This document shows positions 2,067-61,081 of a stretch of DNA of 64,000 nucleotides, piece after piece (positions within the stretch are counted from its first letter, which is position 1; each line of letters begins with the position of its first letter). The stretch is from Candidatus Woesearchaeota archaeon (GTDB lineage: Archaea > Nanobdellota > Nanobdellia > Woesearchaeales > UBA12501), in the NCBI GenBank assembly GCA_030651375.1, contig JAUSFM010000009.1, positions 65,345 through 129,344 on the forward strand, read 5' to 3'. The notes below the pieces were generated by a model. The model was not told the DNA's origin. It was given only the letters and a program-made list of their open reading frames with translations, and ran no database searches. The translations under genes and the position numbers were made by a program.

Positions 2067-3760
2067 AAACATCAATGAAAAAAGAACTGCCGGAAATAAA
2101 AGCATCCGATCTTCTCGTCCAATGCCTTGAAGCCGAAGGTGTCAAATATATTTTCGGCCTGCCCGGCGAGGAAAACGAGGATCTTCTTTTTTCACTCGAC
2201 AAATCATCCATCAAATTCATTTCAACGCGCCACGAGCAGGGCGCGGCGTTCATGGCTGATGTCTATGGAAGGCTGACGGGGAAAGCAGGAGTATGCCTCG
2301 CGACCTTAGGTCCGGGCGCAACGAATCTTATTACGGGTGTTGCTGACGCGCATCTCGATAAGGCACCGCTGGTCGCCATCACCGGACAAGGAAGTTCACG
2401 CCGGCTTCACAAAGAAAGCCACCAGATTGTTGACATTGTCAATTTGTTCAAGCCGATTGTAAAATGGAATACGTCGATAAACCATCCGGACATTATTCCT
2501 GAAATTGTGCGCAAGGCATTCAAGCTGGCTGAAATTGAAAAGCCAGGAGCGACACATTTCGAATTGCCAGAAGATATCGCAAAACTGAAGGTTGCCGGAA
2601 AAGAGCCAATTGTTCCGCAGCGGGTTCGCCGGTCTGCGCCGGATTACAAAGCATTGCAGGCAACCGTTGACCTTTTGAAGCAGTCAAAAAAACCGCTCAT
2701 CATTGCTGGCAATGGCGCGATTCGCAAGCTCGCCTCAAAACATCTCATTGAATTTGTTGAAACAACACATATTCCCGTGGTCTCAACTTTTATGGGCAAA
2801 GGCGCGATTGGCGACAAAAATCCGCATTCTCTTTTTGCCGTCGGCCTTCGCGGACGTGATTATGTCATGTGTGCGATTGAACAAGCTGACCTTATCATCA
2901 CCATTGGCTACGATATTGGAGAATACGATCCGCAGGCATGGAACCCCGACAAGAAAAAGAAAATTGTGCATATTGACTTTTTGCCTGCTGAAGTCTATGA
3001 ATATTATCAGCCGGACATTGAAGTGGTGTGCGACATCTCCGGCATGCTCTGGGAACTCAACGCGCTCCTCAAAAAAGAAAAAATTTCTTTTGCACAGAAC
3101 TGGTTTGCCCCTATTCGCAACGCCATACAAAAAGACATTGAATCATACGACTTGAAAGAAGGGCAGGCATTGACCGTGCCCGGCGCCCTAAATATCATCC
3201 GCAGCATCATGCGCGATGACGACATCCTCATTTCTGACGTCGGCGCGCACAAGATGTGGATTGCGCGTAATTATCCTGTTTATTCACCAAACACCTGCAT
3301 TATTTCCAACGGCTTATCCAGCATGGGTATTGCGGTACCCGGTGGCGTTGCGGCAAAATTGGCGCATCCGGGCAAGCATGTTGTTGCAGCAACCGGCGAC
3401 GGTGGCTTCATGATGAATTCTCATGAAATTGAGACAGCAAAACGTATCGGTGTTGGCTACACGATTGTTGTCTTTAACGACTTTGATTATGGCCTGATTT
3501 CGTGGAAACAAGAAGACCACCATGGCCGCTCCGTCGGCACAAAGTTGGGAAATCCTGACTTCAAAAAATACGCTGAAAGTTTTGGCATTCGCGGGTATTG
3601 TCCGAAAACAGTTAGCGAATTAAAATCAAACTTGAAAGAGGCAATCGAAAGCGGCGCGTTGTGCCTTGTTGAAGTACAGATTGACGCAGGGGAAAACAAG
3701 CGGCTTGGCAAAAAATTGCAGAGTGATTTATGCAGTGTGTTTTATGGGAAGAAAAAATGA
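2063..3760 (+). CDS. Thiamine-pyrophosphate enzyme, acetolactate-synthase large-subunit-like
   Basis: 565 aa. N-terminal TPP pyrimidine-binding domain and C-terminal TPP-binding motif GDGGFMMN...N. Translationally coupled to the ALDH gene. Confidence 0.8.
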   Translation: MKTSMKKELPEIKASDLLVQCLEAEGVKYIFGLPGEENEDLLFSLDKSSIKFISTRHEQGAAFMADVYGRLTGKAGVCLATLGPGATNLITGVADAHLDKAPLVAITGQGSSRRLHKESHQIVDIVNLFKPIVKWNTSINHPDIIPEIVRKAFKLAEIEKPGATHFELPEDIAKLKVAGKEPIVPQRVRRSAPDYKALQATVDLLKQSKKPLIIAGNGAIRKLASKHLIEFVETTHIPVVSTFMGKGAIGDKNPHSLFAVGLRGRDYVMCAIEQADLIITIGYDIGEYDPQAWNPDKKKKIVHIDFLPAEVYEYYQPDIEVVCDISGMLWELNALLKKEKISFAQNWFAPIRNAIQKDIESYDLKEGQALTVPGALNIIRSIMRDDDILISDVGAHKMWIARNYPVYSPNTCIISNGLSSMGIAVPGGVAAKLAHPGKHVVAATGDGGFMMNSHEIETAKRIGVGYTIVVFNDFDYGLISWKQEDHHGRSVGTKLGNPDFKKYAESFGIRGYCPKTVSELKSNLKEAIESGALCLVEVQIDAGENKRLGKKLQSDLCSVFYGKKK

Positions 3761-4161
3761 AACAAGGAACACTTGCTGGCGCAGTTATCATTCAGAACAA
3801 GCGGCTTCTCCTAATTCATAACATCAAACATGGCAGGCGCATCGAAGTGCCCGGCGGAAAAGTACATTCCGGAGAAACGCATGAGCAAGCGCTGGTTCGC
3901 GAGTGTCTCGAAGAAATTGGTGTGACTGTTTCTGTCGGCACAAAAATCGGTGTGTATCATACACCCTCCCCTGAAGGCGTGTTCAACTGCCATCTGTATC
4001 ACTGCACTATTCTTCACGGCGAGCCAACCATTTGCGAGCCGCACAAGTGCGACAAAATCGGATGGTATACCTACAACAAGCTCGAACAGCTGAAAAAAGA
4101 CGGTCTGCTCGTGCCGAATGTGGTGGGTGCGATGGAGCATTTGAAGGGGATGATGAAGTAA
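3757..4161 (+). CDS. NUDIX hydrolase
   Basis: Nudix box GGKVHSGETHEQALVRECLEEIGV. Start moved to the MKQGT Met to reduce overlap with the upstream gene. Confidence 0.8.
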   Translation: MKQGTLAGAVIIQNKRLLLIHNIKHGRRIEVPGGKVHSGETHEQALVRECLEEIGVTVSVGTKIGVYHTPSPEGVFNCHLYHCTILHGEPTICEPHKCDKIGWYTYNKLEQLKKDGLLVPNVVGAMEHLKGMMK

Positions 4162-11254: not shown

Positions 11255-11330
11255 GCCATCTGGGAAAAGGGAAACCTTTTTATACTTTCCGCAAATGTCT
11301 GTTTTATACTCACATTGGGGGTTGATTCTC
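11255..11330. promoter_or_regulatory. Divergent promoter with two ttttatact TATA-like boxes
   Basis: One box lies about 25 bp upstream of sodA; the other is oriented toward the oxidoreductase gene. Confidence 0.35.
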
Positions 11331-11936
11331 ATGGCACATACCTTACCAAAACTTGATTATGACTACAGCGCGCTTGAGCCGACCATTGACGCAAAAACAA
11401 TGGAGATTCATCACACAAAACACCATCAGGCCTACATTGACAAGCTCAACGCCGCGATTAAAGGGACTGCATTTGAATCAATGGACGTTGTTGAACTGAT
11501 AAAAAAATTAAACGAAGTTCCTGAAAACATCCGAACCGCTGTTCGCAATCATGGCGGCGGCCATCTGAATCATTCGTTCTTCTGGAAAATAATGGCGCCG
11601 AAAGCCGGCGGCGAACCAACCGGAAAAATTGGCGACGCCATCACGAAAACATTTGGCAGCTTTGAAAAATTCAAGGAAGAATTTTCAAACGCAGGGCTGA
11701 ATCGCTTTGGTTCGGGTTGGGCATGGCTCGTTGCAGATCATGGAAAACTTGCAGTAGTCAGCACGCCGAATCAGGACAACCCGCTCACGGACGGAAAAAT
11801 TCCCTTGCTCGGATGCGACGTCTGGGAACACGCCTATTATTTACGCTACCAAAACAAGCGCGCTGATTATCTTGCCGCGTTCTGGAACGTGGTGAACTGG
11901 AAGGAAGTTGAGAAACAGTTTAAGGCATTGAAATAA
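11331..11936 (+). CDS. sodA: Fe/Mn superoxide dismutase
   Basis: [17 protein letters not shown] and the [18 protein letters not shown] motifs of the Fe/Mn SOD family. The track ORF 10899..11936 is an N-terminally over-extended artefact. Confidence 0.9.
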
Positions 11937-11962
11937 AAAGGCTTAAATATGCCCGCTCTATA

Positions 11963-12613
11963 GTGACTCTTATGGCAGAAACAACAACCCAAACAACCCA
12001 AACAACCCAATCAACCACAAAACAATTCATCACCCGCGAAACAACCATCGGTGACATTGTTGCGCAGTATCCGTATCCTGAAATAGTTGAGACCTTGATG
12101 GGCTTCGGCGTGCACTGCGTTGGCTGCGGCGCGAGTGCGTATGAGTCGCTGGAAGACGGCTTTGCCGGCCACGGCATGGGCGACACTGATATTGATGAGG
12201 CGGTTCGCCAGCTGAATGAAGTTATTGGCAAAATCGAAGAGGAGCGCAGCGTGGCGCCTGCACCTGTTGAAACAGAATCAAAACAAGACTATAACCTCAC
12301 GCTCACTGAATCCGCTGCTGCAAAAATCAGGGAACTGCGCAGCAGAGAAAAGAAAGATGACCATGCGTTACGCATCAGAATCATTCCCGGCGGCTGTTCT
12401 GGCTTCCAGTACCGCTTTATTTTTGACAACAAGACAACTGCTGACGATACTATTCTTGAAAAGCACGGCGTAAACCTGTGTGTTGACAAAGAAAGTCTGG
12501 CTATGCTCAACAATGCGAAAATAGATTTTGTCGATACGCTGCAGGGCAGCGGATTTAAGATAGACAATCCCAATTCAACTGATAACTGCCATTGTGGGAA
12601 GAGCTTTAAGTAA
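11963..12613 (+). CDS. Fusion protein: DUF1858-like CxxC domain + IscA/HesB Fe-S assembly domain
   Basis: N-terminal (TTQ)n low-complexity stretch, then a DUF1858-like segment with VHCVGCGAS. C-terminal HesB/IscA domain ends with the cluster-ligand motif CHCGKSF. Confidence 0.65.
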   Translation: MTLMAETTTQTTQTTQSTTKQFITRETTIGDIVAQYPYPEIVETLMGFGVHCVGCGASAYESLEDGFAGHGMGDTDIDEAVRQLNEVIGKIEEERSVAPAPVETESKQDYNLTLTESAAAKIRELRSREKKDDHALRIRIIPGGCSGFQYRFIFDNKTTADDTILEKHGVNLCVDKESLAMLNNAKIDFVDTLQGSGFKIDNPNSTDNCHCGKSFK

Positions 12614-12617
12614 CCAT

Positions 12618-13028
12618 TCAGGATTCTCTTCGTTCGATATCACTAACTTTGTCAAACCCTCCATCAAAAGAATAAATTATCGGCACATTTAGTTCACGTG
12701 CAGCGACGATAAGTGAGCAGTCAGTAAGTGTTAATGTTTTGTATTGTGCCATCAATCTTCCGATTTCGTAGTGCATCACTTTATCAACGTACATGACCTG
12801 AATCCGCTCAACATCAGTTAAGGAAACGTAGGCTTTGAGAAGATCTTCAAAGCGTACCTTCTTCATAAGAAAATTAATTACTTCGACAATGACATAATTC
12901 GTGACAATCATCTTTCCTATTTTCTTATCGAGCAACTGATTCATGATATCGATGCTCTTTTGTCGATGCTGATCTCCTTTGTACCAAAGACCGATGAATA
13001 TGTTTGAATCAACAATTACCGTGTTCAT
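12618..13028 (-). CDS. vapC: PIN-domain ribonuclease toxin (VapC-like)
   Basis: 136-aa PIN fold with N-terminal VDSNIF acidic motif. AT-rich relative to surroundings. Translationally coupled to the upstream small ORF. Confidence 0.65.
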   Translation of the reverse strand: MNTVIVDSNIFIGLWYKGDQHRQKSIDIMNQLLDKKIGKMIVTNYVIVEVINFLMKKVRFEDLLKAYVSLTDVERIQVMYVDKVMHYEIGRLMAQYKTLTLTDCSLIVAARELNVPIIYSFDGGFDKVSDIERRES

Positions 13029-13324
13029 AGTGTTGTGTCTATCTCCTCAAGCCAGTTTTTTCCTAAGTCAATCGGTTTGATGCTCTTCAGTAATTGGGTA
13101 ATCCTTTCCCGTGTATTGTCTTGTTTTTTTCCAAGTCGGCTTGCCAGCTCTTCTTGGTGTTCTGCCGCAATTTCAATGCTTTTTTCGATAAGTGTTTTTT
13201 GCGCAACGGAAATACCACGGTGCTTGAGATGAATCTGAAGCTCATCAAGAAGCAGAACGCTTTCCCTTGCTATCCTGCGTGTTGTGTCTGGTTCCATAGT
13301 GACCACTTGACTACTTGTAGTCAA
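13025..13324 (-). CDS. Putative antitoxin partner of VapC
   Basis: 99-aa charged ORF overlapping the PIN gene start by 4 nt. Typical toxin-antitoxin arrangement. Confidence 0.4.
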   Translation of the reverse strand: MTTSSQVVTMEPDTTRRIARESVLLLDELQIHLKHRGISVAQKTLIEKSIEIAAEHQEELASRLGKKQDNTRERITQLLKSIKPIDLGKNWLEEIDTTL

Positions 13325-13353: not shown

Positions 13354-13953
13354 ATGTTTATAAATAACCTCATTTTTCCTTGTTCTATGGCTGACTTCCT
13401 CGACTTTCCTGACTTCGACCCCCCCCTGAAGCAGGTTGAACCTGACGACGCGCTGATTGTTCTTGCAGCGCTCCGCGCCGAGGAACAGGCGCGGCCAGAA
13501 TTGGTTGCTGTTTTCAAACCATTTCCCACACTGACAAGCGATTATCTCTATCTTCCACTGCGGCGCCGTGTTCGTCTTGGAATATTTAATCGCTCCAATA
13601 GTGGTTATCTTCACGGGCAGGGTACCGGCGACTGCATACGTGCATTGGACGGACGCAAAGGGCTGCAAGAACTTGCGCGCACGTGCCGCTGGACCTATCA
13701 AGTCCTCGCATTTTTTGATGCCTACACACAAGAACAACAAGAAGGAACCACACGACCGTTTACCAGCGGCACACTTCGCCAAACGAGCGACGGGAGAACC
13801 GTGCTCAAAAATATCCGCCACAACAGTTCTTCATTAGACACTGTTGTTCGCATTGCTGCCGAAGCCCAGCCAGACATTCTCAACCATTACTGGTCGCGCC
13901 AACGCGCAGAAGAGCAACGAGAAGTCTTAGTTCGCTCACCGTACGTTCATTAA
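13354..13953 (+). CDS. Hypothetical protein
   Basis: 199-aa ORF, no recognised motif. Confidence 0.35.
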   Translation: MFINNLIFPCSMADFLDFPDFDPPLKQVEPDDALIVLAALRAEEQARPELVAVFKPFPTLTSDYLYLPLRRRVRLGIFNRSNSGYLHGQGTGDCIRALDGRKGLQELARTCRWTYQVLAFFDAYTQEQQEGTTRPFTSGTLRQTSDGRTVLKNIRHNSSSLDTVVRIAAEAQPDILNHYWSRQRAEEQREVLVRSPYVH

Positions 13954-13982: not shown

Positions 13983-14011
13983 TTTATATACAAGTTCGCA
14001 TATACGAACTT
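13983..14011 (+). promoter_or_regulatory. TATA box (tttatata) followed by inverted repeat AAGTTCG-N6-CGAACTT: candidate DtxR operator
   Basis: 7-bp perfect inverted-repeat arms at 13992..14011 around a catata core, between the TATA box and the dtxR start codon (14016). Confidence 0.45.
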
Positions 14012-14015
14012 TTCT

Positions 14016-14417
14016 ATGATCACCGCGACCAAAGAGGATTATCTTCGGGCGATCTATCGCTTGGAGGAAAAACAGGGGCGGGCCGTCAAAGCCGTCGAGC
14101 TTGCCAAAGAATTGCACCTCGCTAAATCAACCGTCTCTGAACGGCTTCGGGAACTGTCGCGTGCAAAACTTGTCAAGCCGCAGTACTCAACGCTTTCCCT
14201 GACTGCCCGCGGTTGCGCTCTGGGGCGTACGCTGACCTACAAGCACCGCATCATTGAAGTGTTTCTCCATGACATGCTCAACTTCGACAAAAAGAAAATC
14301 CACGCCGAGGCACATAAATTGGAACACGCATTCAGCGATGAGGCAATCAAAAAGTTAAGCCGACTGTTGGGGAATCCGCGCACGGATCCGCACGGCTCAG
14401 CGATACCAGCGGTGTAA
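14016..14417 (+). CDS. DtxR/MntR-family metal-dependent transcriptional repressor
   Basis: 133 aa. N-terminal wHTH (KEDYLRAIYRLEEKQGRAVKAVELAKELHLAKSTVSERL) and metal-site His/Glu residues of the DtxR/IdeR/MntR family. Confidence 0.85.
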   Translation: MITATKEDYLRAIYRLEEKQGRAVKAVELAKELHLAKSTVSERLRELSRAKLVKPQYSTLSLTARGCALGRTLTYKHRIIEVFLHDMLNFDKKKIHAEAHKLEHAFSDEAIKKLSRLLGNPRTDPHGSAIPAV

Positions 14418-14419
14418 TC

Positions 14420-15706
14420 ATGTCAAAAAGTTCTTTCTTTCTCGGCGTCCTGCTTTTCGTAGCTGGCATTGTATTTCTTTTTCTTCCTCACGATGTACAC
14501 CTTAAAGTAACCTTTGGCATAAACCTTCCTCACGTCATTCACTCGCTCATTGGCGCCGGTGTTGGACTTATCGGGCTTATCAGTATCTTTAATTCACGCT
14601 TTGAGCGTTCGTTGCCTTTTTTTGCTGTGCATCGCCGTGTGCTGAAAAAAATTGTTGTTATGCTGTTCTTTCTTGTTGTCACTGCCAGCGTTTTTTTTCA
14701 GGCATCAGAAGGAAGCCACGAGCCGGGCAAGGCGAGCATCGAAACTGATGGTCAGCACGTGCCTGATGATTATGCCGATCTACACACGGTTGCACAAGCG
14801 CAAATGGGCGCTGTCGGTGAGGTAAGCGAATTTCCCGGTATTGATCCGACTGTGTATCTAACGGCGTGGAACTTCGACAATCTCCCCCCTGAAGAGCGCG
14901 CCAAATTCTACAAAGAAACTCCTCGCGCCGATGATACCATGCTGCGCGAATACTGGTTTTATGCTGAAGAAACAGAAATTGAAATCGCTCCCGGTGTTTT
15001 TTTTCCGGCATGGGCATATAATGGGCAAGTTCCTGGCCCCACGATTCGCGCAACTGAAGGAGATACGGTCCGCATTTATTTCACCAACAAGGCAGAAAAA
15101 CCCCACACCATGCACTTCCACGGCTTCCACCCGGCAGAGATGGACGGTTCCATGCCGCACCAGCTGGTGCTGCCCGGTGAAACCTTTACGTATGAATTCA
15201 CTGCCGAGCCGTTTGGCACCCACCTGTACCACTGCCATTCAGTTCCCCTTGCCCAGCACATCACCAAGGGATTATACGGCGTCTTTATTGTTGACCCAAA
15301 AACTGACCCGCGGCCGAAGCCAAACACAGAACTTGTCATGCTGATGAATGGCTTTGATCCGAACTTTGACGGCGAAAATGAAGTCTATGCTGTCAACACG
15401 GTTGCGTTTTATTACATGAAACATCCTATCAAAGTAAAAAAAGGCGAGCTGGTTCGCATTCACTTGAGCAACATGCTCGAGATTGATCAGATTAATTCAT
15501 TCCATCTTCACGGAAACTTTTTTGACAAATACAACACAGGCACCACCCTGACGCCGAGTGATTATACTGATATTTTGATCCTTGGCCAGGCCGAACGTGC
15601 AATCCTTGATGTGCGTTTCAAGTATCCCGGCCAGTACATGTTCCACTCCCACAAAACCGAGTTTGCCGACAAGGGATGGATGGGTATGTTTGAGGTGGAA
15701 GAATGA
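14420..15706 (+). CDS. Membrane-anchored two-domain multicopper oxidase
   Basis: N-terminal TM region, then copper-ligand motifs HTMHFHGFH, HCHSV...H and FHSHKTEF (T1 Cys, T2/T3 His pairs). Confidence 0.8.
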   Translation: MSKSSFFLGVLLFVAGIVFLFLPHDVHLKVTFGINLPHVIHSLIGAGVGLIGLISIFNSRFERSLPFFAVHRRVLKKIVVMLFFLVVTASVFFQASEGSHEPGKASIETDGQHVPDDYADLHTVAQAQMGAVGEVSEFPGIDPTVYLTAWNFDNLPPEERAKFYKETPRADDTMLREYWFYAEETEIEIAPGVFFPAWAYNGQVPGPTIRATEGDTVRIYFTNKAEKPHTMHFHGFHPAEMDGSMPHQLVLPGETFTYEFTAEPFGTHLYHCHSVPLAQHITKGLYGVFIVDPKTDPRPKPNTELVMLMNGFDPNFDGENEVYAVNTVAFYYMKHPIKVKKGELVRIHLSNMLEIDQINSFHLHGNFFDKYNTGTTLTPSDYTDILILGQAERAILDVRFKYPGQYMFHSHKTEFADKGWMGMFEVEE

Positions 15707-16890
15707 GCCGCCGCGCGAACCTCTGGGTTCGGGGGCTTTTGCCGCTCTTGTTACTTGCGGTTCTTCTCTTCAGCTTTGTTAACTTCGGTCCGCTTGGTGT
15801 TTTTAAGGCATCCTTTCCGCCGATTGAAGAAGTCTTCATTGACCGCGTCGTGTTCGCGCCAGAGCAGGTTACGCTCGATGTGCTCAATGACGGCCCGCAA
15901 CCAGTCACCGTCTCACAGGTGCTTGTAAACGATGTGTATTGGAATTTTAAAATGGAACCAAGCTCGACGCTTTCGCCGCTGCAGCGCGGAAAAATTGATC
16001 TGGTGTATCCCTGGGTTGAAGGCGAACCGATTGGATTCACGCTGATTGCCAGCGATGGCGTGACGTTTGATAAAGAAGTCGAGATTGCTTTTTTGACGCC
16101 AACCTTCAATTGGCTGTACTTCAAAACATTTGTCATGCTTGGCTTATATGTCGGTGTGATTCCCGTCCTTATTGGCTTGTTGTGGTTTCCGTTTCTTAAA
16201 CAACTGCACCGCAAATGGTACAGTTTCCTGCTCGCCTTCACCATCGGCCTGCTCATCTTTTTAGGATTCGATGCACTCAAAGAAGCATTCGACTTAGTTG
16301 GGTCAGTTGCAGAAACTCTGAACGGTGTTGGCATCTTTGTCATTGGCTTCCTGCTCTCGATTCTTGTTCTTTCTGCAGTCAGCTACCGGACTGAATTTGT
16401 TAAGCAAAAAAGCGCGCATGTCAAGGCACTTGTCTGGGGCTATCTCATTGCGCTGGGCATAGGGTTGCACAACTTGGGCGAGGGACTCGCCATTGGAAGC
16501 GCCTATGCGTTTGGTGAAATTGCGCTCGGCGCCACGCTGGTCATCGGATTCATGGTGCACAATGTTACCGAAGGCGTTGCGATTGTCACGCCGCTCACTC
16601 GCAGCGGTGAACGGTTTCGCAGCATACTTCCACATCTTGTCGGCATGGGCATTCTCGCAGGAATACCAACTATTCTTGGCACGCTCATTGGCGGTTTTTC
16701 ATACGGTCCGGCGTTGGGCGTATTTTTCTTTGCCATCGGCGCCGGCGCGATTTTTGATGTTGCGTTTGACATCGCACGCCATCTTGCCGAAGAAAAAGGA
16801 AAATGGATTTCCATCTTTACCCTGCCGAATGTTATTGGATTTTTCATTGGCTTATTGGTCATGTACCTGACTGGATTTTTAGTAGTGTGA
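15703..16890 (+). CDS. ZIP-family divalent metal permease with extra N-terminal extracytoplasmic domain
   Basis: C-terminal ZIP signatures GLHNLGEGLAIG and HNVTEGVAIV (ZupT-like). About 150 aa of non-ZIP domain sits between the first TM and the ZIP core. 4-nt overlap with the MCO gene. Confidence 0.8.
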   Translation: MSRRANLWVRGLLPLLLLAVLLFSFVNFGPLGVFKASFPPIEEVFIDRVVFAPEQVTLDVLNDGPQPVTVSQVLVNDVYWNFKMEPSSTLSPLQRGKIDLVYPWVEGEPIGFTLIASDGVTFDKEVEIAFLTPTFNWLYFKTFVMLGLYVGVIPVLIGLLWFPFLKQLHRKWYSFLLAFTIGLLIFLGFDALKEAFDLVGSVAETLNGVGIFVIGFLLSILVLSAVSYRTEFVKQKSAHVKALVWGYLIALGIGLHNLGEGLAIGSAYAFGEIALGATLVIGFMVHNVTEGVAIVTPLTRSGERFRSILPHLVGMGILAGIPTILGTLIGGFSYGPALGVFFFAIGAGAIFDVAFDIARHLAEEKGKWISIFTLPNVIGFFIGLLVMYLTGFLVV

Positions 16891-16899
16891 GGAATAAAA

Positions 16900-17268
16900 A
16901 TGGCTAAGCTTTTTCTGCTGCTTTTTTTCTGTATCATGGTTCTGTTGGCAGGGTGCAGTACGCTGCCAGAATCAAACACCGTGCCTACCGGCGCGGTGAA
17001 AGAATTTACCATAACAGCGCAAAACTGGGAATTTTCACCTGCAACTATTCGCGTCAATGAAGGCGACACCGTCGTTATTCATGCACGCACGATTGAAGGA
17101 ATTCACGGCCTACTGTTTCCTGATTTCAATATCAATAAACGGCTTGATCCGGGAGAAGAAGTAACCATTGAATTTGTTGCCGATAAAAAAGGCATCTTTC
17201 CTTTTGCCTGCTCGGTGTATTGTGGGAATGGGCATACTGCAATGAATGGAATTTTGATTGTGGAGTAA
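16900..17268 (+). CDS. Cupredoxin-fold lipoprotein with CuA-like motif
   Basis: Lipobox LLAGCS. CSVYCGNGHTAM resembles the CuA C-x3-C-x3-H-x2-M ligand set of COX2/N2OR cupredoxins. Confidence 0.6.
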   Translation: MAKLFLLLFFCIMVLLAGCSTLPESNTVPTGAVKEFTITAQNWEFSPATIRVNEGDTVVIHARTIEGIHGLLFPDFNINKRLDPGEEVTIEFVADKKGIFPFACSVYCGNGHTAMNGILIVE

Positions 17269-18538
17269 TACCATGCTCTCCTTTCTCAAATCATTCCGCT
17301 GTCTAAAAGACAGAAACTTCTGGACTTTTTTTGGTTCAGGGCTGCTCGTCAGCGTTGCCTACATGGACCCCGGCAACTGGGGCACCGACATCAGCGGCGG
17401 AGCATCGTTTAATTATGATCTTCTCTGGGTGATTTGGCTTGCTTCGGGCATGGGTATGCTTTTTCAATATCTTTCAGGCAAGCTCGGCATTGCCGGCTAT
17501 TCCCTGCCGGAACTCGTCAAGGAACGCTTCAAAAATAAATGGGCAGTGCTCTCATATTGGCTCCTTGCAGAAGTTGCGATTCTTGCGACTGACCTTGCTG
17601 AATTTTTGGGAATTGTCGTCGCGCTGAACTTATTGTTTGGCATTCCGCTCATTTATGGAACGTATCTTGCCATTGCCGATGTGCTCGTCATTATATTCCT
17701 CACTCAAAAACGGTTTCGCTTGCTTGAACAGGTGTTTGTTGTCTTTGTCTCCATCATCGGGCTTGCGTATGTGTACGAATTGTTCATCACCAAGCCAGAT
17801 ATTTCTGCAATCCTCATTCATTCCATCACGCCGAAACTGACGGCGGCGAGCGCGCTCATTGCCGTTGGCATCATTGGAGCGACGGTCATGCCGCATGCGC
17901 TCTTTGTGCATTCATGGCTGCTGAAAAATAAAATAATCAGCAGCAACGGCAAACTGGGCAACAAAAAAACAATCCTGAAATATCACCTTATTGATAATGT
18001 TGTTTCCCTCACGATTGCCGGTGGAATCAACGCGGCAATTCTGATTATGTCAGCTGCTGCGTTTTACCATATCGGCGCGCCGGTAGCAACACTGGAGGAA
18101 GCGTACAAAACGCTGATACCCTTGTTTGGCACGTTTGCGGCGGTCGTCTTTGCCGTTGCGCTGTTATCCGCAGGCATCTCATCGTCGGTGACCGGCACGC
18201 TTGCCGGACAGTCAATCATGGACGGGCTTACCAATTTTAAAATTCCGCTCTGGGTGCGCCGTGTCATCACCCGCGGCATCAACGTGATTCCCGTAACCAT
18301 CGCGATTGTGCTCGGCATTGACCCGCTGAAGATATTAGTTCTGAGTCAAGTTGCGTTGAGTCTTCTGATACCTCTTCCGCTGATTCCGCTCCTAGTGTTT
18401 ACCTCAAACAAAAAAATTATGAAATCTTTGGTCAATAAAAAAATAACCACCGTCTTCGCAGTCCTTTTTGCGGCAATCATTCTCTGCTTTAACGCGTACC
18501 TATTATATTCAGTCTTTACCGGCGGCGTTCAGTTTTGA
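17258..18538 (+). CDS. mntH: NRAMP-family Mn2+/Fe2+ transporter
   Basis: DPGNWGTDI metal-binding motif, 11-12 TM helices, 426 aa. Confidence 0.85.
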   Translation: MWSNTMLSFLKSFRCLKDRNFWTFFGSGLLVSVAYMDPGNWGTDISGGASFNYDLLWVIWLASGMGMLFQYLSGKLGIAGYSLPELVKERFKNKWAVLSYWLLAEVAILATDLAEFLGIVVALNLLFGIPLIYGTYLAIADVLVIIFLTQKRFRLLEQVFVVFVSIIGLAYVYELFITKPDISAILIHSITPKLTAASALIAVGIIGATVMPHALFVHSWLLKNKIISSNGKLGNKKTILKYHLIDNVVSLTIAGGINAAILIMSAAAFYHIGAPVATLEEAYKTLIPLFGTFAAVVFAVALLSAGISSSVTGTLAGQSIMDGLTNFKIPLWVRRVITRGINVIPVTIAIVLGIDPLKILVLSQVALSLLIPLPLIPLLVFTSNKKIMKSLVNKKITTVFAVLFAAIILCFNAYLLYSVFTGGVQF

Positions 18539-18554: not shown

Positions 18555-19211
18555 TTACCGCTGTGTCACCACACCAACTTGCTTGCAGTATTTTCGTATT
18601 GGGCACCGGCTGCAGTGCGGGCTGATGGGCGTGCAGGTGTGCTGGCCGAAGGCGACGAGCATTGAGTTAATTTTCTCCCAGTACTCTTTTGGCAGTTTTT
18701 TCCGCAGCGCCATTTCAGTTTCATACGGCGTTTTTGTTTTGACATACCCCAACCGGTTGCTGATGCGGTGGACATGGGTATCAACGCACATGCCGGGCTT
18801 TTGAAAGCCGACAGCCACGACGAGGTTTGCGGTTTTTCGCCCGACACCGGGCAGTTCGATAAGCTCTTCGACGGTCTGCGGAATTGTTCCTCCAAATTTT
18901 TCCTGTAGTACCAGCGGAAGCTGTTTCAAATGGCGCGCTTTTGTTTTGTAAAAGCCGACCGGATAAATAAGCTGTTCGATTTCTTTTTCTGAAAGCGTTC
19001 CGAGGTCTGCGACATGGTGGATGCGGGAAAATAATTTTCTGCAGGCTGCTGCGGTTGTCTGGTCCTTTGTGCGGGCAGAAAGAATCGTAGCAATGAGCAC
19101 CTTTTCAGGATCGTTTGTTTGTATTTTGATTAAATCAACAATCGGGACCTTGTAGTTCTTGACTTCTTTTTCAAGAATCTGGTACACCGTATCAATGCTG
19201 GCGCTGTTCAT
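18555..19211 (-). CDS. nth: Endonuclease III (DNA glycosylase/AP lyase)
   Basis: HhH-GPD motif LPGVGRKTANLV, catalytic Lys/Asp, and 4Fe-4S loop C-x6-C-x2-C-x5-C (CTPISPHCSRCPIRKYC). Confidence 0.9.
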   Translation of the reverse strand: MNSASIDTVYQILEKEVKNYKVPIVDLIKIQTNDPEKVLIATILSARTKDQTTAAACRKLFSRIHHVADLGTLSEKEIEQLIYPVGFYKTKARHLKQLPLVLQEKFGGTIPQTVEELIELPGVGRKTANLVVAVGFQKPGMCVDTHVHRISNRLGYVKTKTPYETEMALRKKLPKEYWEKINSMLVAFGQHTCTPISPHCSRCPIRKYCKQVGVVTQR

Positions 19212-19807: not shown

Positions 19808-20047
19808 CACATCCCCTTCTTTTATCTTGCACTGGCAGCACAAGCGGTGCTTTTCATCAATCCCCATTTGCGCCTCTGCTTCGGTGCGTTCCGATAGGTG
19901 TTCCATGCCGCTGATTATTTCAACGTAGCACGTGCCGCACAAGCCGTTTTCGCAGCCGAACGGTATTCCCAACTCTTTGCAGGCATCCTTGATGGGCTCG
20001 CCTTCTTTGACGTCGCGCGATTCACCGCTGGAAATGATGGCTGGCAT
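19793..20047 (-). CDS. 2Fe-2S ferredoxin
   Basis: 84 aa. Cluster-ligand pattern GCENGLCGTCYV ... CCQC typical of the Fer2 family. Confidence 0.7.
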   Translation of the reverse strand: MPAIISSGESRDVKEGEPIKDACKELGIPFGCENGLCGTCYVEIISGMEHLSERTEAEAQMGIDEKHRLCCQCKIKEGDVEIKY

Positions 20048-20177
20048 GAAACGAAAAACCGTGCTGGTGGTTTATATAGGTTGCGGAAATTGATTATTTT
20101 ACTTCAACTATTTCCCTGTTTAGTTCACCCAATCTTTGATAGAAATCCATTTATAGGGGTATCACTTTTTGTTTTTT

Positions 20178-21449
20178 ATGATTAAAAAATCTATTATCTC
20201 AACCATCTTAATACTGCACTTTATACTTTTTAGTTATCCTGTTTTAGGATTAGAGTGTCAATATACTTCAAATCTTGAATATTCAACGGAAGAAGAAGGT
20301 TGGTACTTAAATAATGAGTTATTAGATGGTTCTCCTACTCAGGAAATAATAGGGTCGAATGATAACTTTGAATCTCACAAAGTATACAACCCCTTCGAAT
20401 TTCCCATAACAGTTGAAATTAGTTATGCTACTTTTTCGACATGGTACGGGGGGAGTAATGGTGGAATTACTGGCGTTGTACCTCCTAAACAGTATGTTAC
20501 TCTAATAAGTCATCATACAGCTGATGGGCAGATTCGAGATTTAAAGTTCAAAATTATTGAACCATCCGGAATTATTAACAAACTTGAATTAGTTAAAAAA
20601 AATAAACTTGTCTGTAAAGAATGTGGTGGAAAAGTGTGCATGGATGATGGCTTAACCTGTGAAATAAATTCCGAATGTGGCAGCGGAAAGTGTATAGAAA
20701 AAATATGCTCTCCTAACAATTACTGCTATAATAATAACTGCGAATGCTCCTTTTTTGAAGTTCAATCAAAAGATAACACCAAATGTGAGAATAATAATAT
20801 CTTTTTCGGATTAACATTTATGGCGATGTTACTTATTATCGGCGCACTCATCTTCATCAAAATAATGAGGGAAAAAAGAAAAACAACACAAGCAAAAAAA
20901 GAAGCAGATGTAAAAGTTGAAAAAGAAAAACAGATAACTGCGGAGAAAGAAAGAGAAAAATACGATAAAGAACTTAGTGTTTTAAAAGAACGCCAAGATG
21001 CAATATTAAGAAAAGAAGAGGAATTGGAGGAATTAAAGAGACTTTCTAGTCTAACAAAACAAGAGAAGGAAAATATCCAAAAATTATCAGAAGAAATAAC
21101 TAAAGAAACACTTGAAATGGAGAAAAATGTAAAAAAAAGATTTGCGGTTTCTATGGAACCATATCCAAGTAAATATGCAAGCCATAGGCGTGTTTTTAAA
21201 AATCCCTATCTGGGTGGCTACGAATGTTTTTATGAAGAAAGACTTGACCCCAAAAAATATTCTTTGTCAAAGCTGGTTCATAGGTGGGTTTGGAAAAAAG
21301 CAAATGGGAGGGAACCAAAACAAGGTTATCATATCCATCACATTGATGGAGATAAATACCATAATGATGCAAAAAACCTTGAAGAAATTAAAGGAGACGA
21401 ACATTATGGACTGCATAGAAATGAAAGACAAATTCCCCCTCAATCTTGA
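20178..21449 (+). CDS. Signal/TM-anchored Cys-rich, coiled-coil protein with C-terminal HNH endonuclease domain
   Basis: N-terminal hydrophobic helix, Cys-rich module (CKECGGKVC...CGSGKC...NNCEC), TM helix and K/E-rich coiled coil. C-terminal HNH motif HIHHIDGDKYHNDAKNLEEIKGDEHYGLH. Strongly AT-rich. The track start 20169 is TTG; the ATG at 20178 is preferred. Confidence 0.6.
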   Translation: MIKKSIISTILILHFILFSYPVLGLECQYTSNLEYSTEEEGWYLNNELLDGSPTQEIIGSNDNFESHKVYNPFEFPITVEISYATFSTWYGGSNGGITGVVPPKQYVTLISHHTADGQIRDLKFKIIEPSGIINKLELVKKNKLVCKECGGKVCMDDGLTCEINSECGSGKCIEKICSPNNYCYNNNCECSFFEVQSKDNTKCENNNIFFGLTFMAMLLIIGALIFIKIMREKRKTTQAKKEADVKVEKEKQITAEKEREKYDKELSVLKERQDAILRKEEELEELKRLSSLTKQEKENIQKLSEEITKETLEMEKNVKKRFAVSMEPYPSKYASHRRVFKNPYLGGYECFYEERLDPKKYSLSKLVHRWVWKKANGREPKQGYHIHHIDGDKYHNDAKNLEEIKGDEHYGLHRNERQIPPQS

Positions 21450-21596
21450 TCTCATGCCTCTTTTTTCCATTTTTTTTATCGAGTAATCTCCCCGTTCATC
21501 CCACCCACTGGACATCCCCATTCTGCCTTAAAACCCCCGATCACAGGCCATAAGCCCCAAACTCCGTAGCACTGGACACTGGACAGATGCGCGTGA

Positions 21597-21613
21597 GGTT
21601 TATATAGTACCAC
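21597..21613 (+). promoter_or_regulatory. BRE/TATA-like promoter (gaggtttatatagtacc) for the Bro-N gene
   Basis: TATA-like octamer about 25 bp upstream of the ATG at 21629. Confidence 0.4.
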
Positions 21614-21628
21614 TCCCTCAACAAAGTA

Positions 21629-22474
21629 ATGGATCAAAAAACTGCTTTGGTCGTGTTTGAAGACAAGAAAATACGAAGAATCTGGCATAATGACGAATGG
21701 TATTTCTCTGTTGTTGATATAATCGGTGTACTCATTGATACTCCCGATGCTCGGAACTACTGGAAAGTTCTCAAACATCGTTTATTAAAGGAAGGAAGTG
21801 AAGTGGTTACAAAATGTAACCAGTTGAAATTACCCGCCCCGGATGGTAAACTAAGGGAAACCGACTGTGCGAACACCAAAAACATGTTCAGAATCATCCA
21901 AACAATACCTTCTCCCCGTGCAGAAACGTTTAAGATGTGGCTCTCTCAAGTCGGCTACGAGCGCGTCCAAGAAATCGAAAATCCGGAATTAGGCCAAGAC
22001 CGCATTAAAAAATATTATGAGCTGAAAGGCTATCCCCAAGACTGGATTGACAAGCGCCTTCGGGGAATTGCTATTCGCCAAGAACTCACCGATGAATGGA
22101 AAAACAGAGGCGTTGGTGAACAGCGTGAGTACGCCATCCTCACCAATGAGATTTCACAGGCAACATTTGGCGTTCCCATCAAAACGCACAAGGAAATCAA
22201 AGGCCTTGACCCGAAATTCAAGAACCAAAACCTGCGCGACCACATGTCTGACCTCGAACTTATTTTTTCAATGCTGGGCGAACGGCTGACCACTGAAGCA
22301 GCGCGCAAGAAAGACGTTCACGGTTTTACCGAGAATCTTGAAACAGCACAAGAAGGCGGCGCGGTTGCCGGCCGCGCGCGTACCGACGCTGAAAAGACTT
22401 TAGGCATTGCTGTTGTTTCTCCAGAAAATGCACTTGATATTGTTCACCAAAAGAAGCGCATAGAAAAAAAGTGA
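21629..22474 (+). CDS. Bro-N domain protein (DinD/antirepressor-like)
   Basis: N-terminus LVVFEDKKIRRIWHNDEWYFSVVDIIGVL fits the Bro-N/KilA-N pattern. C-terminal charged domain. Confidence 0.6.
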   Translation: MDQKTALVVFEDKKIRRIWHNDEWYFSVVDIIGVLIDTPDARNYWKVLKHRLLKEGSEVVTKCNQLKLPAPDGKLRETDCANTKNMFRIIQTIPSPRAETFKMWLSQVGYERVQEIENPELGQDRIKKYYELKGYPQDWIDKRLRGIAIRQELTDEWKNRGVGEQREYAILTNEISQATFGVPIKTHKEIKGLDPKFKNQNLRDHMSDLELIFSMLGERLTTEAARKKDVHGFTENLETAQEGGAVAGRARTDAEKTLGIAVVSPENALDIVHQKKRIEKK

Positions 22475-61076: not shown

Positions 61077-61081
61077 GGCTA

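Follow-up and report, generated by a model that had tools for sequence, protein, structure and literature searches.

A putative self-repressed metal-uptake operon uniting a multicopper oxidase and a CuA-type cupredoxin with ZIP and NRAMP importers in a Woesearchaeota archaeon

Introduction

Why should a copper oxidase share an operon with a small copper protein, two importers of divalent metals and a metalloregulator? The question is raised by a contig of a Candidatus Woesearchaeota archaeon, of which a 64-kb stretch (64,000 nucleotides, hereafter the window) was analysed. In the window five tightly packed ORFs of the + strand code for a DtxR-like regulator, a multicopper oxidase (MCO), a ZIP permease, a cupredoxin and an NRAMP importer. 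A preliminary description had proposed these five co-directional genes and their families; the ORFs lie where it placed them and every family assignment was confirmed. Uncharacterised versions of this oxidase–importer–copper-protein core are found in bacteria as well as archaea, in hundreds of species, as a rule next to a regulator of the same metal-sensing family.

Organization of the operon

The first gene (14016..14417, +) codes for a two-domain metalloregulator of the DtxR/MntR family, 133 aa long, comprising the Pfam domains PF01325 (Fe_dep_repress) and PF02742 (Fe_dep_repr_C), with no SH3/FeoA domain in its Pfam assignment. The junctions between the genes had been put at 4–11 nt; the tight coupling holds, but the distance between the regulator and MCO genes is in fact 2 nt. 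The MCO and ZIP genes share a 4-nt ATGA overlap, and spacers of 9 and 4 nt separate the ZIP gene from that of the cupredoxin and the latter from the NRAMP gene, respectively. A Shine-Dalgarno-like GGTG, GAGGTG or GAGGA is found at each internal gene start, while inspection of the dtxR start in the window revealed no such motif ahead of it, and dtxR is therefore regarded as leaderless. Genes for an Fe/Mn superoxide dismutase and endonuclease III lie near the operon both in the window and in a sister locus, L210.

The oxidase (14420..15706, +; 428 aa; Pfam Cu-oxidase_3 and Cu-oxidase_2) is a membrane-anchored type-C two-domain MCO with three predicted N-terminal transmembrane helices. Its T1 copper is bound by H229, C272 and H280, while L285 takes the axial position, and the trinuclear cluster is formed by eight histidines (232, 234, 271, 273, 362, 364, 409, 411), the domain 2 motif being HSH in place of HCH. 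The nearest solved structures, 3GDC (E 3e-101), which we take to come from Arthrobacter, and 7RAB (E 2e-95), can be aligned with it throughout the catalytic region, every copper ligand being conserved; 3GDC and 7RAB/7RAC are likewise type-C two-domain MCOs. A literature search found a published function for neither 3GDC nor 7RAB, and a 97%-identical relative of 7RAB is encoded in a DtxR-MCO-ZIP-ZnuA-ABC operon.

The ZupT-like ZIP permease (15703..16890, +; 395 aa; ZupT E 7e-13) contains the invariant motifs HNLGEG (256-261) and HNVTEG (286-291), and REXXE motifs of the Ftr1 type are absent from it. The match to BbZIP begins only at residue 143; ahead of it lie a transmembrane helix and a domain peculiar to MCO-linked ZIPs, an Ig-like beta-sandwich. 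In the AF2 model (pLDDT 75.7) the core resembles BbZIP, and residues 45-126 form the beta-sandwich, of FlaF/FlaG fold, in which no conserved metal ligands were seen. Ordinary ZupT proteins, such as the ZIP encoded behind feoAB in locus L097, have no such domain, and in both loci examined (2/2) a ZIP retrieved by the N-terminal domain alone adjoins an MCO.

The cupredoxin (16900..17268, +; 122 aa) is a lipoprotein of the CuA type, with the lipobox LLAGC (Cys19) and the exact CuA spacing H69-x34-C104-x3-C108-x3-H112-x2-M115, kept in 12 orthologues. Its best PDB matches are to the CuA domain of the Thermus ba3 oxidase; it also weakly matches the Cu chaperone CupA (E 1.4e-4), and is homologous to a type-1 cupredoxin encoded 3' of ZIP in 52 bacterial loci (hhalign 92.9%).

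The last gene (17273..18538, +) codes for an NRAMP/MntH divalent-metal importer of 421 aa (NCBIfam MntH NF001923, scoring 457.8 bits, above the cut-off of 430) with the DPGN and MPH motifs. Its start had been placed at TTG 17258, which is unlikely: ATG 17273 has GGAG 11 nt upstream, leaves the 4-nt spacer and gives the 421-aa product of the NCBI (MDO8642483.1) and Logan annotations, so that, judging by these signals, it is almost certainly the true start.

The promoter and its operator

The TATA box TTTATATA (13984..13991, +), directly preceded by AACC, would serve the leaderless dtxR transcript. Between it and the start codon lies a 20-bp palindrome, AAGTTCG-CATATA-CGAACTT (13992..14011), which abuts the TATA box on one side and ends 4 nt from the dtxR ATG on the other. 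The exact palindrome occurs once within the 64 kb, and copies with 2-3 mismatches, all within coding regions, are not enriched in the window (5 found, 4.1 expected).

All five genes are found again in the sister locus L210, together with a perfect 20-bp palindrome, AAGTTCGTATATACGAACTT; over TATA box, palindrome and ATG the two loci agree in 40 of 43 positions, whereas their upstream flanks cannot be aligned. Eleven DPANN genome loci have AAGTTAGG-N4-CCTAACTT at the identical promoter position, with AACCTTTAWATA located 1 nt ahead of the box in eleven DPANN loci and in L210. When metagenomes were scanned for TATA box plus box, at least 120 stretches matched; in at least 50 of them the box lies 2-5 nt upstream of a dtxR ATG, with MCO(-CUP)-ZIP(-NRAMP) following in at least 23 such cases. 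In 41 non-redundant promoters the box-to-ATG distance is 0-4 nt. Two CPR loci (L021, L024) have the box GTTCG-N6-CGAAC after a sigma-70 -10 element, and their regulators share the KSTVSERL helix with that of the window. The variable base of the box co-varies with the recognition helix of the regulator (Fisher p = 1.6e-6): K-P goes with GTTAGG boxes in 32/32 regulators, and K-S or K-A with a GTTCG or CGAAC half-site in seven of nine. Nor is the box confined to MCO operons, as among the matches listed the same family heads dtxR-feoB, feoAB, dtxR-FTR1, dtxR-NRAMP and dtxR-ZnuA/ABC operons in related archaea.

The autoregulatory operator proposed earlier is thus borne out by the conservation in L210, the recurrent position of the box and the co-variation of helix and box, and, as far as sequence comparison can tell, the palindrome is a real one. 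That it is instead the terminator hairpin of the upstream ORF (13354-13953), or a mere part of the core promoter, is very improbable: it lies 39 nt downstream of that ORF's stop codon and its RNA folds at -8.2 kcal/mol (z = -3.3), followed by UUUUCU, but the box sequence itself is kept, beyond pairing alone, while the spacer varies, it persists in locus L005, where the upstream gene is divergent and a terminator needless, it sits downstream of the sigma-70 -10 element in CPR bacteria, it is not flagged by a consensus terminator scan, and the co-variation speaks for a regulator binding site.

The metal sensed

The metal-ligand positions of the regulator are D8, H77, E81, H96, H100, E103 and H104. 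Asp at position 8 is not diagnostic, because the FeoB-linked paralogues share it. Its closest relatives in the PDB are the streptococcal Mn sensors SloR and ScaR, and Fe-type Met/Cys ligands occur in none of the regulators compared. No MCO-ZIP pair was found in one operon with feoB or FTR1 in the loci sampled and the metagenome matches listed. Moreover, acidobacterial dtxR/MCO intergenic regions contain TTTTGA-N4-TCAAAA, matching the SirR motif of Hfx. volcanii, TTTwGAnnnnTCwAAA, found at the Nramp and MtsABC promoters (PMC10783522). These four observations suggest a lean towards manganese. Iron is nearly as likely, because the DPANN box is similar to the TroR/DtxR box of the iron type (TTAGG..CCTAA; for TroR see PMC10783522) and the same DPANN box stands at feoAB and FTR1 in related archaea; manganese has about an even chance, and iron slightly less.

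Distribution of the module

In a survey of 80 genome loci with an MCO, drawn from many phyla, ZIP directly follows the MCO in all 80, so that the oxidase does have a conserved operon context. A dtxR gene adjoins the pair in about 66 of the 80 loci, and a small cupredoxin gene follows in more than 55. The operon includes a cupredoxin gene in the window and L210, in five DPANN genome loci (between MCO and ZIP) and in 52 bacterial loci. NRAMP accompanies MCO-ZIP in 10 genome loci, and in L089 the companions are ZnuA and an ABC-3 importer. The window operon represents one form of a module that occurs widely, in which the cupredoxin is a core part and NRAMP or an MntABC-type transporter an optional addition. 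In one locus, L212, the module is flanked by an OprB porin and a TonB-dependent receptor. Two apparent MCO-ZIP fusions turned out to be frameshift artefacts, and no genuine fusion was found.

Proposed function

Since related archaea place the same box before feoAB, FTR1, NRAMP and ABC importers, the operon is probably a self-repressed uptake unit for divalent metal, serving under Mn2+ or Fe2+ starvation. A metal-loaded dimer of the regulator would bind the palindrome, which fills the gap from the TATA box to the leaderless start, and would exclude RNA polymerase, shutting off its own gene and the four downstream ones. On metal shortage a single message, its genes tightly coupled in translation, would be made from the whole unit, and ZIP and NRAMP would bring divalent ions in; both repression by the metal-bound regulator and import by the two permeases are what we infer from knowledge of their families. 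Acquisition or detoxification had been left as alternatives in the preliminary description; acquisition is favoured, because an operator so placed implies that the regulator represses in its metal-loaded form. Uptake is also favoured by the box at importer operons, the NRAMP and ZnuA-ABC-3 partners and the porin and TonB-dependent receptor flanks in L212.

The membrane-anchored MCO, its catalytic domains presumably outside, and the cupredoxin lipoprotein beside it may form a copper redox pair of the outer face, functionally tied to ZIP, in which electrons would pass from the cupredoxin to the type-1 copper of the MCO and on to O2. The best guess is that a reduced competing ion, Fe2+ and perhaps Cu+, undergoes oxidation at the entrance of the importers, whose specificity is broad, and this would let Mn2+ in without an overload of Fe2+ or Cu+. 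An oxidase acting thus as a guard, or selectivity device, is a speculative idea that we put forward tentatively, and to our knowledge it is without precedent. We know of no established role for an oxidase where ZIP or NRAMP takes in Mn2+ or Fe2+; since the ions that ZIPs transport are divalent, the oxidation product would be no ZIP substrate, which counts against a link between oxidase and import.

With several copper atoms per MCO and cupredoxin, the system may concern copper instead, the MCO turning Cu+ to Cu2+, ZIP importing Cu2+ and the cupredoxin binding or relaying it. Copper uptake is the published hypothesis for the sole described two-domain MCO-ZIP pair, that of ammonia-oxidising archaea (AOA), whose MCO1 and adjacent permease are mildly induced in N. 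viennensis under Cu limitation (log2FC 0.81 and 1.33; PMC7785015). The axial Leu of the window MCO, as reported for MCO1, and the weak CupA match agree with it. Copper acquisition nevertheless seems unlikely: the adjoining regulator in the ~66 genomes belongs to the DtxR family, known for Fe/Mn sensing, and is no copper sensor; the partners are NRAMP and MntABC-type importers, with CopA, CopZ, CsoR and CopCD in none of the loci examined; and copper-hungry machinery for obtaining copper is a paradox, as noted by Reyes et al. (PMC7785015).

Equally doubtful is a channelling of the Fet3/Ftr1 kind, in which the MCO, together with the cupredoxin, oxidises Fe2+ or Mn2+ and passes the trivalent ion directly to ZIP, the extra N-terminal ZIP domain docking the oxidase. 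The obligate adjacency of MCO and ZIP (80/80), with overlapping genes here, the Ig-like domain missing in ordinary ZupT and a starvation-induction logic resembling that of yeast FET3/FTR1, induced by metal starvation, would suit it. Yet ZIP retains the canonical divalent-ion site HNxxEG twice and lacks REXXE, genuine FTR1 genes stand under the same box without any MCO among the matches listed, true fusions are wanting, and a trimeric MCO would make an awkward stoichiometry with a dimeric ZIP.

Still a little less probable is protection from oxidative stress or toxic metal, with MCO and cupredoxin scavenging O2 or oxidising toxic Cu+ or Fe2+ at the surface, imported Mn feeding Mn-dependent antioxidant defence and the link to ZIP being regulatory only. 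Stress genes do lie nearby, namely those of the window and L210 named above, DJ-1/PfpI, AhpC and Ogg in L005, OsmC and MsrA in L088 and AhpC in L212, and respiratory oxidases are missing from most CPR and DPANN organisms. However, ZIP after the MCO in every sampled genome, with overlapping frames, and the flanks of L212 are left unexplained, and a detoxifying oxidase is expected to be induced by metal excess, while an operator downstream of TATA argues for repression. Mn2+ or Fe2+ uptake under starvation is thus retained as the preferred reading.

Comparison with known systems

A. fulgidus MDR1, B. subtilis MntR-mntH and streptococcal SloR/ScaR represent autorepressed metal-uptake operons of the DtxR/MntR family. 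As in the window, the regulator is their first gene, divalent-metal importers including NRAMP are the cargo, and a palindromic operator (box 8-N4-8) lies just past TATA, over the transcription start. SirR and TroR of Hfx. volcanii are further archaeal regulators of metal uptake from this family (PMC10783522). The window differs in the pairing of the box variant GTTCG-N6-CGAAC with the KSTVSERL helix, and in having an oxidase and a cupredoxin in the cargo, neither of which was found in a described DtxR/MntR regulon in a literature search.

Eukaryotic Fet3p-Ftr1p and bacterial EfeUOB and FtrABCD are iron importers built of an oxidase or cupredoxin and a permease. What they have in common with the window is a copper oxidase or cupredoxin outside the cytoplasm whose gene is coupled to that of a permease, with induction, as proposed for the window, by metal starvation. 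The likeness to Fet3/Ftr1 noted earlier stands as an analogy of logic only, for the permease is outside the Ftr1/OFeT family, being a ZIP with divalent HNxxEG sites and no REXXE. The window MCO is of the trimeric two-domain type related to NirK, whereas Fet3 and CueO are three-domain enzymes.

In Nmar_1354, the AOA MCO4 enzyme (9CCK), which oxidises NH2OH, a fused cupredoxin lies 13.5 A from the T1 copper (PMC11761707); by analogy, it shows that a cupredoxin beside a T1 site can be a working arrangement. It is more distant from the window MCO (E 9e-53), its cupredoxin is fused and it has no ZIP linkage. A DPANN operon uniting cupredoxins and an MCO, as in the window, is the rusticyanin-MCO operon of Parvarchaeota, proposed to act in Fe2+ oxidation; its cupredoxins are type-1 rusticyanin-like, unlike the CuA-type one of the window, and the passages of the source dealing with this operon mention no ZIP, NRAMP or DtxR (PMC5864196).

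The MCO-ZIP pairing itself is already known from AOA, the only published precedent, with a putative function. The pair of MCO1 and ZIP, described as thaumarchaeal-specific (Kerou et al. 2016; Reyes et al. 2020, PMC7785015), has been read as serving copper uptake or hydroxylamine oxidation, and the thought of an oxidase and permease working together in the manner of Fet3 has been raised for it before. It shares with the window a two-domain MCO with T1/T2/T3 copper and axial Leu, and a directly adjoining ZIP. In N. viennensis, however, the neighbour is DUF309 and there is no DtxR regulator, whereas the window adds a DtxR repressor with its operator, a cupredoxin and NRAMP, and, in contrast to the thaumarchaeal-specific description, the MCO-ZIP module is carried by DPANN, CPR, Acidobacteriota, Deinococcota, Balneolaeota and Firmicutes.

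Operon Organization

The five genes form an operon, as the preliminary description had proposed, and run head to tail on the + strand; all the ORFs were found and their families confirmed with both Pfam and NCBIfam. The operon comprises a dtxR-like gene (14016–14417, 133 aa), a gene for a multicopper oxidase (MCO; 14420–15706, 428 aa), a ZIP permease gene (15703–16890, 395 aa), a cupredoxin gene (16900–17268, 122 aa), and an NRAMP gene, which ends at 18538 and starts at either 17258 (426 aa) or 17273 (421 aa). The former start, a TTG chosen in the preliminary description, is less favoured than ATG 17273, because the latter has GGAG 11 nt upstream and a product of 421 aa is given both by the Logan gene call and by NCBI (MDO8642483.1). 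With ATG 17273, the spacer between the cupredoxin and NRAMP genes is 4 nt, while those at the dtxR/MCO and ZIP/cupredoxin junctions are 2 and 9 nt, respectively, and MCO and ZIP overlap by 4 nt (ATGA). A Shine-Dalgarno-like motif precedes every internal start, and dtxR has none. The operon is ended, 16 nt past the NRAMP stop, by a convergent gene for endonuclease III (18555–19211), found in synteny in 10 or more DPANN loci. No tRNA genes and no Rfam RNA families were found in the window.

A diphthamide synthase gene near the operon fits an archaeal origin of the contig. The G+C content of the window is about 0.47, except for 0.365 at 20001–22000 and 0.398 at 60001–62000, two segments that may be foreign DNA. 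An ORF at 20169–21449 (426 aa) is Cys-rich and has a TM segment, a coiled coil, and a terminal HNH-like motif, HIHHIDGDKYHND...DEHYGLH.

The Promoter and Its Operator

The region upstream of dtxR reads AACC-TTTATATA-C-AAGTTCG-CATATA-CGAACTT-TTCT-ATG, with the TATA box at 13984–13991 and a 20-bp palindrome (the box) at 13992–14011; the start codon of dtxR is spaced from TATA as expected for a leaderless transcript. Taken alone, the window makes a modest case that the palindrome exceeds chance. Its only exact copy is that at the dtxR promoter, and looser copies with 2–3 mismatches (3542/3543, 12630/12632, 27147, and 54682) are no commoner in the window than chance would have it, those at ~3542–3543 and 27147 lying within coding regions. 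No second dtxR, feoB, or FTR1 was found within the 64 kb. The site GTTCGATATCACTAAC (12632–12647) joins one half-site of each box version, GTTCG and CTAAC; it is located at the 3′ end of a PIN-domain ORF (12618–13028, − strand), just past the stop of a convergent Fe-S biogenesis gene, has no promoter context around it, and probably arose by chance, the degenerate box core giving 2 matches with 0.19 expected.

Comparison with related sequences is decisive. In L210, a sister locus from a different sample whose ZIP is 85% identical, the same five genes follow in the same order a promoter, ACCTTTATATACAAGTTCGTATATACGAACTTTTCCATG, that holds a perfect 20-bp palindrome; over TATA, box, and ATG this promoter matches that of the window in 40 of 43 positions, and the 85 nt upstream are unalignable. 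Eleven loci from DPANN genomes share the arrangement AACCTTTAWATA-N-(A/T)AGTTAGG-N4-CCTAACT(T), followed after 2–5 nt by the ATG of dtxR. A metagenome scan for TATA plus box with the pattern TTTAWATANNAGTTMGNNNNNNCKAACT matched at least 120 stretches; among the 120 matches listed, 50 stand right before a dtxR homologue. Of these 50 dtxR promoters, no fewer than 23 run on into MCO(-cupredoxin)-ZIP(-NRAMP).

Relative to the DPANN consensus, the window box carries two symmetric substitutions, C for A6 and G for T15. The sequence GTTCG-N6-CGAAC is also present in two CPR bacteria, right after a sigma-70 −10 element, and the regulators of both loci have the recognition helix of the window regulator, KSTVSERL. 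Among 41 non-redundant regulator/box pairs, a Lys-Pro helix goes with GTTAGG/CCTAAC in 32/32, and with a Lys-Ser or Lys-Ala helix at least one GTTCG/CGAAC half-site is found in seven of nine (Fisher p = 1.6e-6, a value that overstates independence, the sequences being related). In DtxR–operator structures the corresponding residue, Pro39, packs against a thymine methyl group; a joint change of Pro to Ser and T to G is what would be expected at a true contact. The claim that the box is an autoregulatory operator thus gains a position kept among relatives and co-variation with the recognition helix, and the regulator is predicted to bind it. The two combinations, Lys-Pro with GTTAGG and Lys-Ser with GTTCG, provide, for the DtxR family, a clean natural example of a recognition code in two versions.

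The palindrome can be folded into a hairpin of −8.2 kcal/mol; its being a terminator of the upstream ORF was ruled out, since the box is kept where the upstream gene is divergent, the arm sequence is conserved while the spacer drifts, and a terminator scan raised no flag. That ORF (13354–13953, 199 aa, no Pfam family) is located directly upstream of the promoter, beside a PIN/antitoxin pair (12618–13324). It is absent from L210, where DUF1858 and the Fe-S biogenesis gene directly precede dtxR, and it looks like a small insertion.

The Regulator

The regulator belongs to the DtxR/MntR family, comprising a winged-helix DNA-binding domain (PF01325, 52 bits, cut-off 26) and a metal-binding dimerisation domain (PF02742, 83.9 bits, cut-off 27), with a palindromic operator in its own promoter. 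It has no SH3/FeoA domain. Its PDB matches are SloR, ScaR, IdeR, DtxR, and MntR, of which the Mn sensors SloR and ScaR are the best structural relatives. The conserved ligands of both metal sites, primary and ancillary, are present (D8, H77, E81, H96, H100, E103, and H104). At the two selectivity positions, Asp8 and His100 in the window regulator, 68 homologues have D or N (position 8) and E or H (position 100), and none of them carries there the Met/Cys of Fe-type DtxR/IdeR. Asp8 was considered as a manganese marker and dropped, because FeoB- and FTR1-linked paralogues have Asp as well.

The Oxidase

The MCO (PF07732 and PF07731) is a type-C two-domain oxidase with the T1 site in domain 1 only, where the ligands are H229, C272, and H280 and the axial position is Leu285; domain 2 has His-Ser-His (H409-S410-H411) and no Cys. 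The His residues of the trinuclear cluster (H232, H234, H271, H273, H362, H364, H409, and H411) do not vary among 16 sequences. Of the solved structures, 3GDC and 7RAB come closest, followed by Nmar_1354 (MCO4, 9CCK), which oxidises NH2OH and has a fused cupredoxin 13.5 Å from the T1 site (PMC11761707). The literature searched yielded no published function for 3GDC or 7RAB and no paper for 7RAB. Close identity to 3GDC, an entry with three chains, suggests that the MCO assembles as a homotrimer.

Three N-terminal TM helices are predicted, which would place the catalytic domains outside the cell. Residues 1–98 (14420–14713) contain a conserved His-rich motif, LPH[DE]xH...TFG..L.H..H, in the first two of these helices. 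The motif is common to a DPANN subset (proteins P0002, P0003, P0009, P0014, and P0019, and locus L008) and may form an intramembrane metal site; most MCO homologues have one TM helix or a TAT signal instead of three TM helices. Two apparent MCO-ZIP fusions, P0382 and P0427, are frameshifted gene calls with segments out of frame and not Rosetta-stone fusions.

The ZIP Permease

The permease scores below curated thresholds (Pfam Zip 29.8, gathering 35.1; NCBIfam ZupT 48.4, cut-off 252). It is nevertheless assigned to the ZIP family because of its motifs and fold: HNLGEG (256) and HNVTEG (286) in TM4/TM5 are invariant in 40 sequences, and the core of the AF2 model resembles BbZIP (Foldseek E 2.7e-5, prob 1.00), as does the sequence (phmmer E 3.7e-8). 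It represents a divergent ZIP subfamily with an extra N-terminal domain. This domain (residues 1–140) consists of a TM helix and an Ig-like beta-sandwich of FlaF/FlaG-like fold (AF2, pLDDT 75.7), with conserved NDGP and YPW motifs and no conserved metal ligands. The subfamily marked by it counts 543 representative clusters, and its full-length members are nearly all ZIPs of ~400 aa with the domain at residues ~30–150; the ordinary ZIP behind feoAB in L097, a metagenome locus, lacks the domain. The domain is a candidate docking surface for MCO or cupredoxin. A reading of it as a PCuAC copper chaperone was dropped, since the Foldseek match is weak (E about 0.03) and no His, Met, or Cys is conserved.

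The Cupredoxin and NRAMP

The cupredoxin of the window appears to be of the CuA type. Its ligand pattern H-x34-C-x3-C-x3-H-x2-M (H69, C104, C108, H112, and M115) has the exact CuA spacing, is conserved in 12 orthologues, and aligns with the ligands of the CuA domain of Thermus thermophilus ba3; the Pfam COX2 score is borderline (21.2, threshold 22), and the lipobox Cys is conserved. The bacterial cupredoxin encoded after ZIP is a membrane-anchored type-1 protein of ~131 aa with the ligands H...C-x2-H-x3-M; among 52 such proteins Pfam Cupredoxin_1 matches 46 and Copper-bind 45. The two forms are homologous (hhalign 92.9%, E 3.6e-7), the CuA form differing from the type-1 form by a five-residue loop insertion that bears the second Cys. 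Six Acidobacteriota loci (L050, at 1268–4056, and L033, L047, L052, L070, and L087) have, ~2.4 kb upstream of MCO-ZIP, a second gene set coding for a porin-like protein, a CuA-motif cupredoxin homologous to that of the window, and a di-haem DHOR-type cytochrome, so that cupredoxins of two types, CuA and type-1, are encoded in the vicinity of their MCO.

The NRAMP protein is of the NRAMP/MntH family (NF001923, 457.8, cut-off 430). Its DPGN (TM1, from residue 37) and MPH (TM6, from 211; numbering from the TTG start) motifs are those of transition-metal NRAMPs.

Distribution and Conserved Core

MCO relatives in DPANN archaea and CPR bacteria number in the thousands. With each species represented by one genome, a scan matched at least 600 stretches, at least 582 of which encode an MCO relative, and the best 80 of these loci were examined for neighbours. 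They span Nano-, Woese-, and Aenigmatarchaeota, several CPR phyla, Acidobacteriota, Latescibacterota, Anaerolineae, Woeseiaceae, and Acidimicrobiia; no thaumarchaeal locus is among these best 80 of at least 582, nor do thaumarchaeal names occur among the matches listed. Within this set ZIP is directly downstream of MCO in 80/80 loci (with the cupredoxin gene between them in five DPANN loci), and a DtxR-family gene lies alongside in about 66/80. The gene after ZIP codes for the type-1 cupredoxin in 52 bacterial loci and for NRAMP in 10. Two further loci were reached from the ZIP side, and MCO adjoins in both. From these counts the conserved core is [DtxR] MCO-ZIP-cupredoxin, an order kept in the window. 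In DPANN and CPR the DtxR gene shares the strand of the module; in Acidobacteriota and the remaining bacterial phyla of the sample it is transcribed divergently.

The module is spread over CPR, DPANN, Acidobacteriota, Deinococcota, Balneolaeota, and Firmicutes. A 97% identical relative of 7RAB is encoded in a DtxR-MCO-ZIP-ZnuA-ABC-3 cluster, and in L212 a DtxR gene on the − strand adjoins OprB porin-MCO-ZIP-cupredoxin-TonB-dependent receptor. Cultured carriers include Fodinibius saliphilus and Polycladomyces abyssicola and probably also Halomonas/Litchfieldella and Salinisphaera, so the function of the module is directly testable.

The surroundings of the module suggest oxidative stress. Upstream of the operon, both in the window (~11300–13000) and in L210, there are genes for an Fe/Mn-SOD, an FAD/NAD oxidoreductase, and DUF1858 with the Fe-S biogenesis gene. 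In relatives (L005, L088, and L212) DJ-1/PfpI, AhpC, Ogg, OsmC, and MsrA are encoded near the module. In L002 (GCA_016192995.1, labelled Woesearchaeota) a gene for a 639-aa sigma-70 factor (1674–3593) is 2.4 kb from MCO-ZIP on a 324-kb contig, indicating either a mislabelled bacterial (CPR) MAG or a notable transfer.

The Sensed Metal

An archaeal operator located between TATA and the start is one at which the bound regulator represses, as in the MDR1 precedent; the position of the box thus implies repression, and the unit is predicted to be induced when metal is short. The same cassette, TATA plus box, precedes in small archaea related to this one dtxR-feoB, dtxR-feoA-feoB, feoA-feoB-ZIP, dtxR-FTR1, FTR1 alone, dtxR-NRAMP, and dtxR-ZnuA/ABC, i.e., importer operons, and MCO-ZIP thus occupies an importer's slot. 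The small archaeal genomes of the metagenome loci L090–L209 follow a modular design, in which TATA and a GTTAGG-N4-CCTAAC box precede a leaderless dtxR joined by a single importer as cargo (FeoB, FeoAB, FTR1, NRAMP, ZnuA/ABC, or MCO-ZIP); hybrid boxes, GTTAGG...CCGAAC, pair there with regulators having Lys-Ser or Lys-Ala helices.

Manganese has about an even chance of being the metal sensed, and iron a somewhat smaller one. In favour of manganese, in L028–L087 (Acidobacteriota and others) ATTTTGA-N4-TCAAAAT is present in roughly 30 of 51 dtxR/MCO intergenic regions. It is identical to the motif TTTwGAnnnnTCwAAA, found at the Nramp and MtsABC promoters, of Haloferax volcanii SirR, an autoregulated Mn regulator (PMC10783522). 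The regulators of these bacteria have a C-terminal FeoA/SH3 domain, and the DPANN ones do not. The co-operonic partners of MCO-ZIP are NRAMP and MntABC-type systems, and neither feoB nor FTR1 was ever found in an MCO-ZIP operon in the loci sampled. In favour of iron, the box of DPANN loci is similar to that of iron-type TroR/DtxR (PMC10783522) and is common to feoAB and FTR1 promoters, and the FeoB-linked paralogues also have Asp8. The DtxR-family linkage and the NRAMP/MntABC partners point to a Mn/Fe rather than a copper context.

Proposed Mechanism

The metal-loaded repressor would sit on the box and block its own leaderless message, and metal shortage would lead to joint expression of the five genes. 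ZIP and NRAMP, judging by their families, would bring divalent ions in. The MCO and the lipid-anchored CuA cupredoxin would form a redox pair at the outer face, in which the cupredoxin may pass electrons to the T1 copper of the MCO, as pseudoazurin does to the related NirK (cf. also the fused "dangler" cupredoxin of MCO4), and the MCO would reduce O2. A possible, tentatively favoured role of the oxidase is that of a guard, oxidising Fe2+, and possibly Cu+, at the entrance to two importers of broad specificity, so that Mn2+ could be taken up at the oxic–anoxic interface with no iron or copper overload. This role is favoured because ZIPs carry divalent ions, and the oxidation product would thus be no ZIP substrate. 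The recurring stress genes near the module (SOD, AhpC, OsmC, MsrA, Ogg, and endonuclease III) fit it.

It is rather doubtful, yet worth considering, that MCO, ZIP, and cupredoxin constitute an obligate three-part O2-dependent importer, a ZIP-based counterpart of Fet3-Ftr1 under Mn/Fe-sensing DtxR-family control in at least several hundred species, the "MCO1+ZIP" pair of ammonia-oxidising archaea (AOA) included. True Fet3-like channelling is unlikely. It could draw on the oxidase–permease pairing, which is obligate by gene order only (80/80 in the best 80 of at least 582 loci and 2/2 from the ZIP side), but the permease is a ZIP and not an Ftr1/OFeT protein with REXXE motifs, just as the preliminary description had it in speaking of different transporter families, and at other loci the same box precedes true FTR1 genes, with RETLE motifs, and no MCO. 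Copper uptake, the published guess for the AOA pair, is equally unlikely, as copper fits poorly with a DtxR-family sensor and these partners. A role in stress only, for which the neighbouring stress genes might speak, is about as unlikely.

Comparison with Known Systems

The regulatory design of the operon is textbook autorepression of the DtxR/MntR type in an archaeal form, and it is this regulation that is well established for the module. The closest known arrangement is the MCO1+ZIP pair of AOA, in which, as in the window, a two-domain MCO adjoins a ZIP permease (PMC7785015, PMC5817080, PMC5767755). MCO-ZIP adjacency has therefore been noted already, but only in AOA; earlier reports called the pair thaumarchaeal-specific, and the function suggested for it there is hypothetical. 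In the literature searched, which leaves most subscription journals outside, no paper linking MntR, SirR, or DtxR to the MCO-ZIP pair was found, nor were the DtxR control, the obligatory cupredoxin, the NRAMP/ABC add-ons, the ZIP N-terminal domain, or the wide spread. A curiosity gene pair of AOA thus becomes a defined regulated module of repressor, operator, oxidase, ZIP, and cupredoxin. Should the oxidase be required for, or guard, a divalent-cation importer, this would amount to a novel principle by which prokaryotes select metals, mattering most for the tiny-genome DPANN and CPR organisms at oxic–anoxic interfaces. The Mn/Fe context challenges the current reading in the nitrifier literature, and, if the three-part importer proved true, the supposed roles of the AOA pair in copper uptake or nitrification would have to be re-read as Mn/Fe homeostasis.
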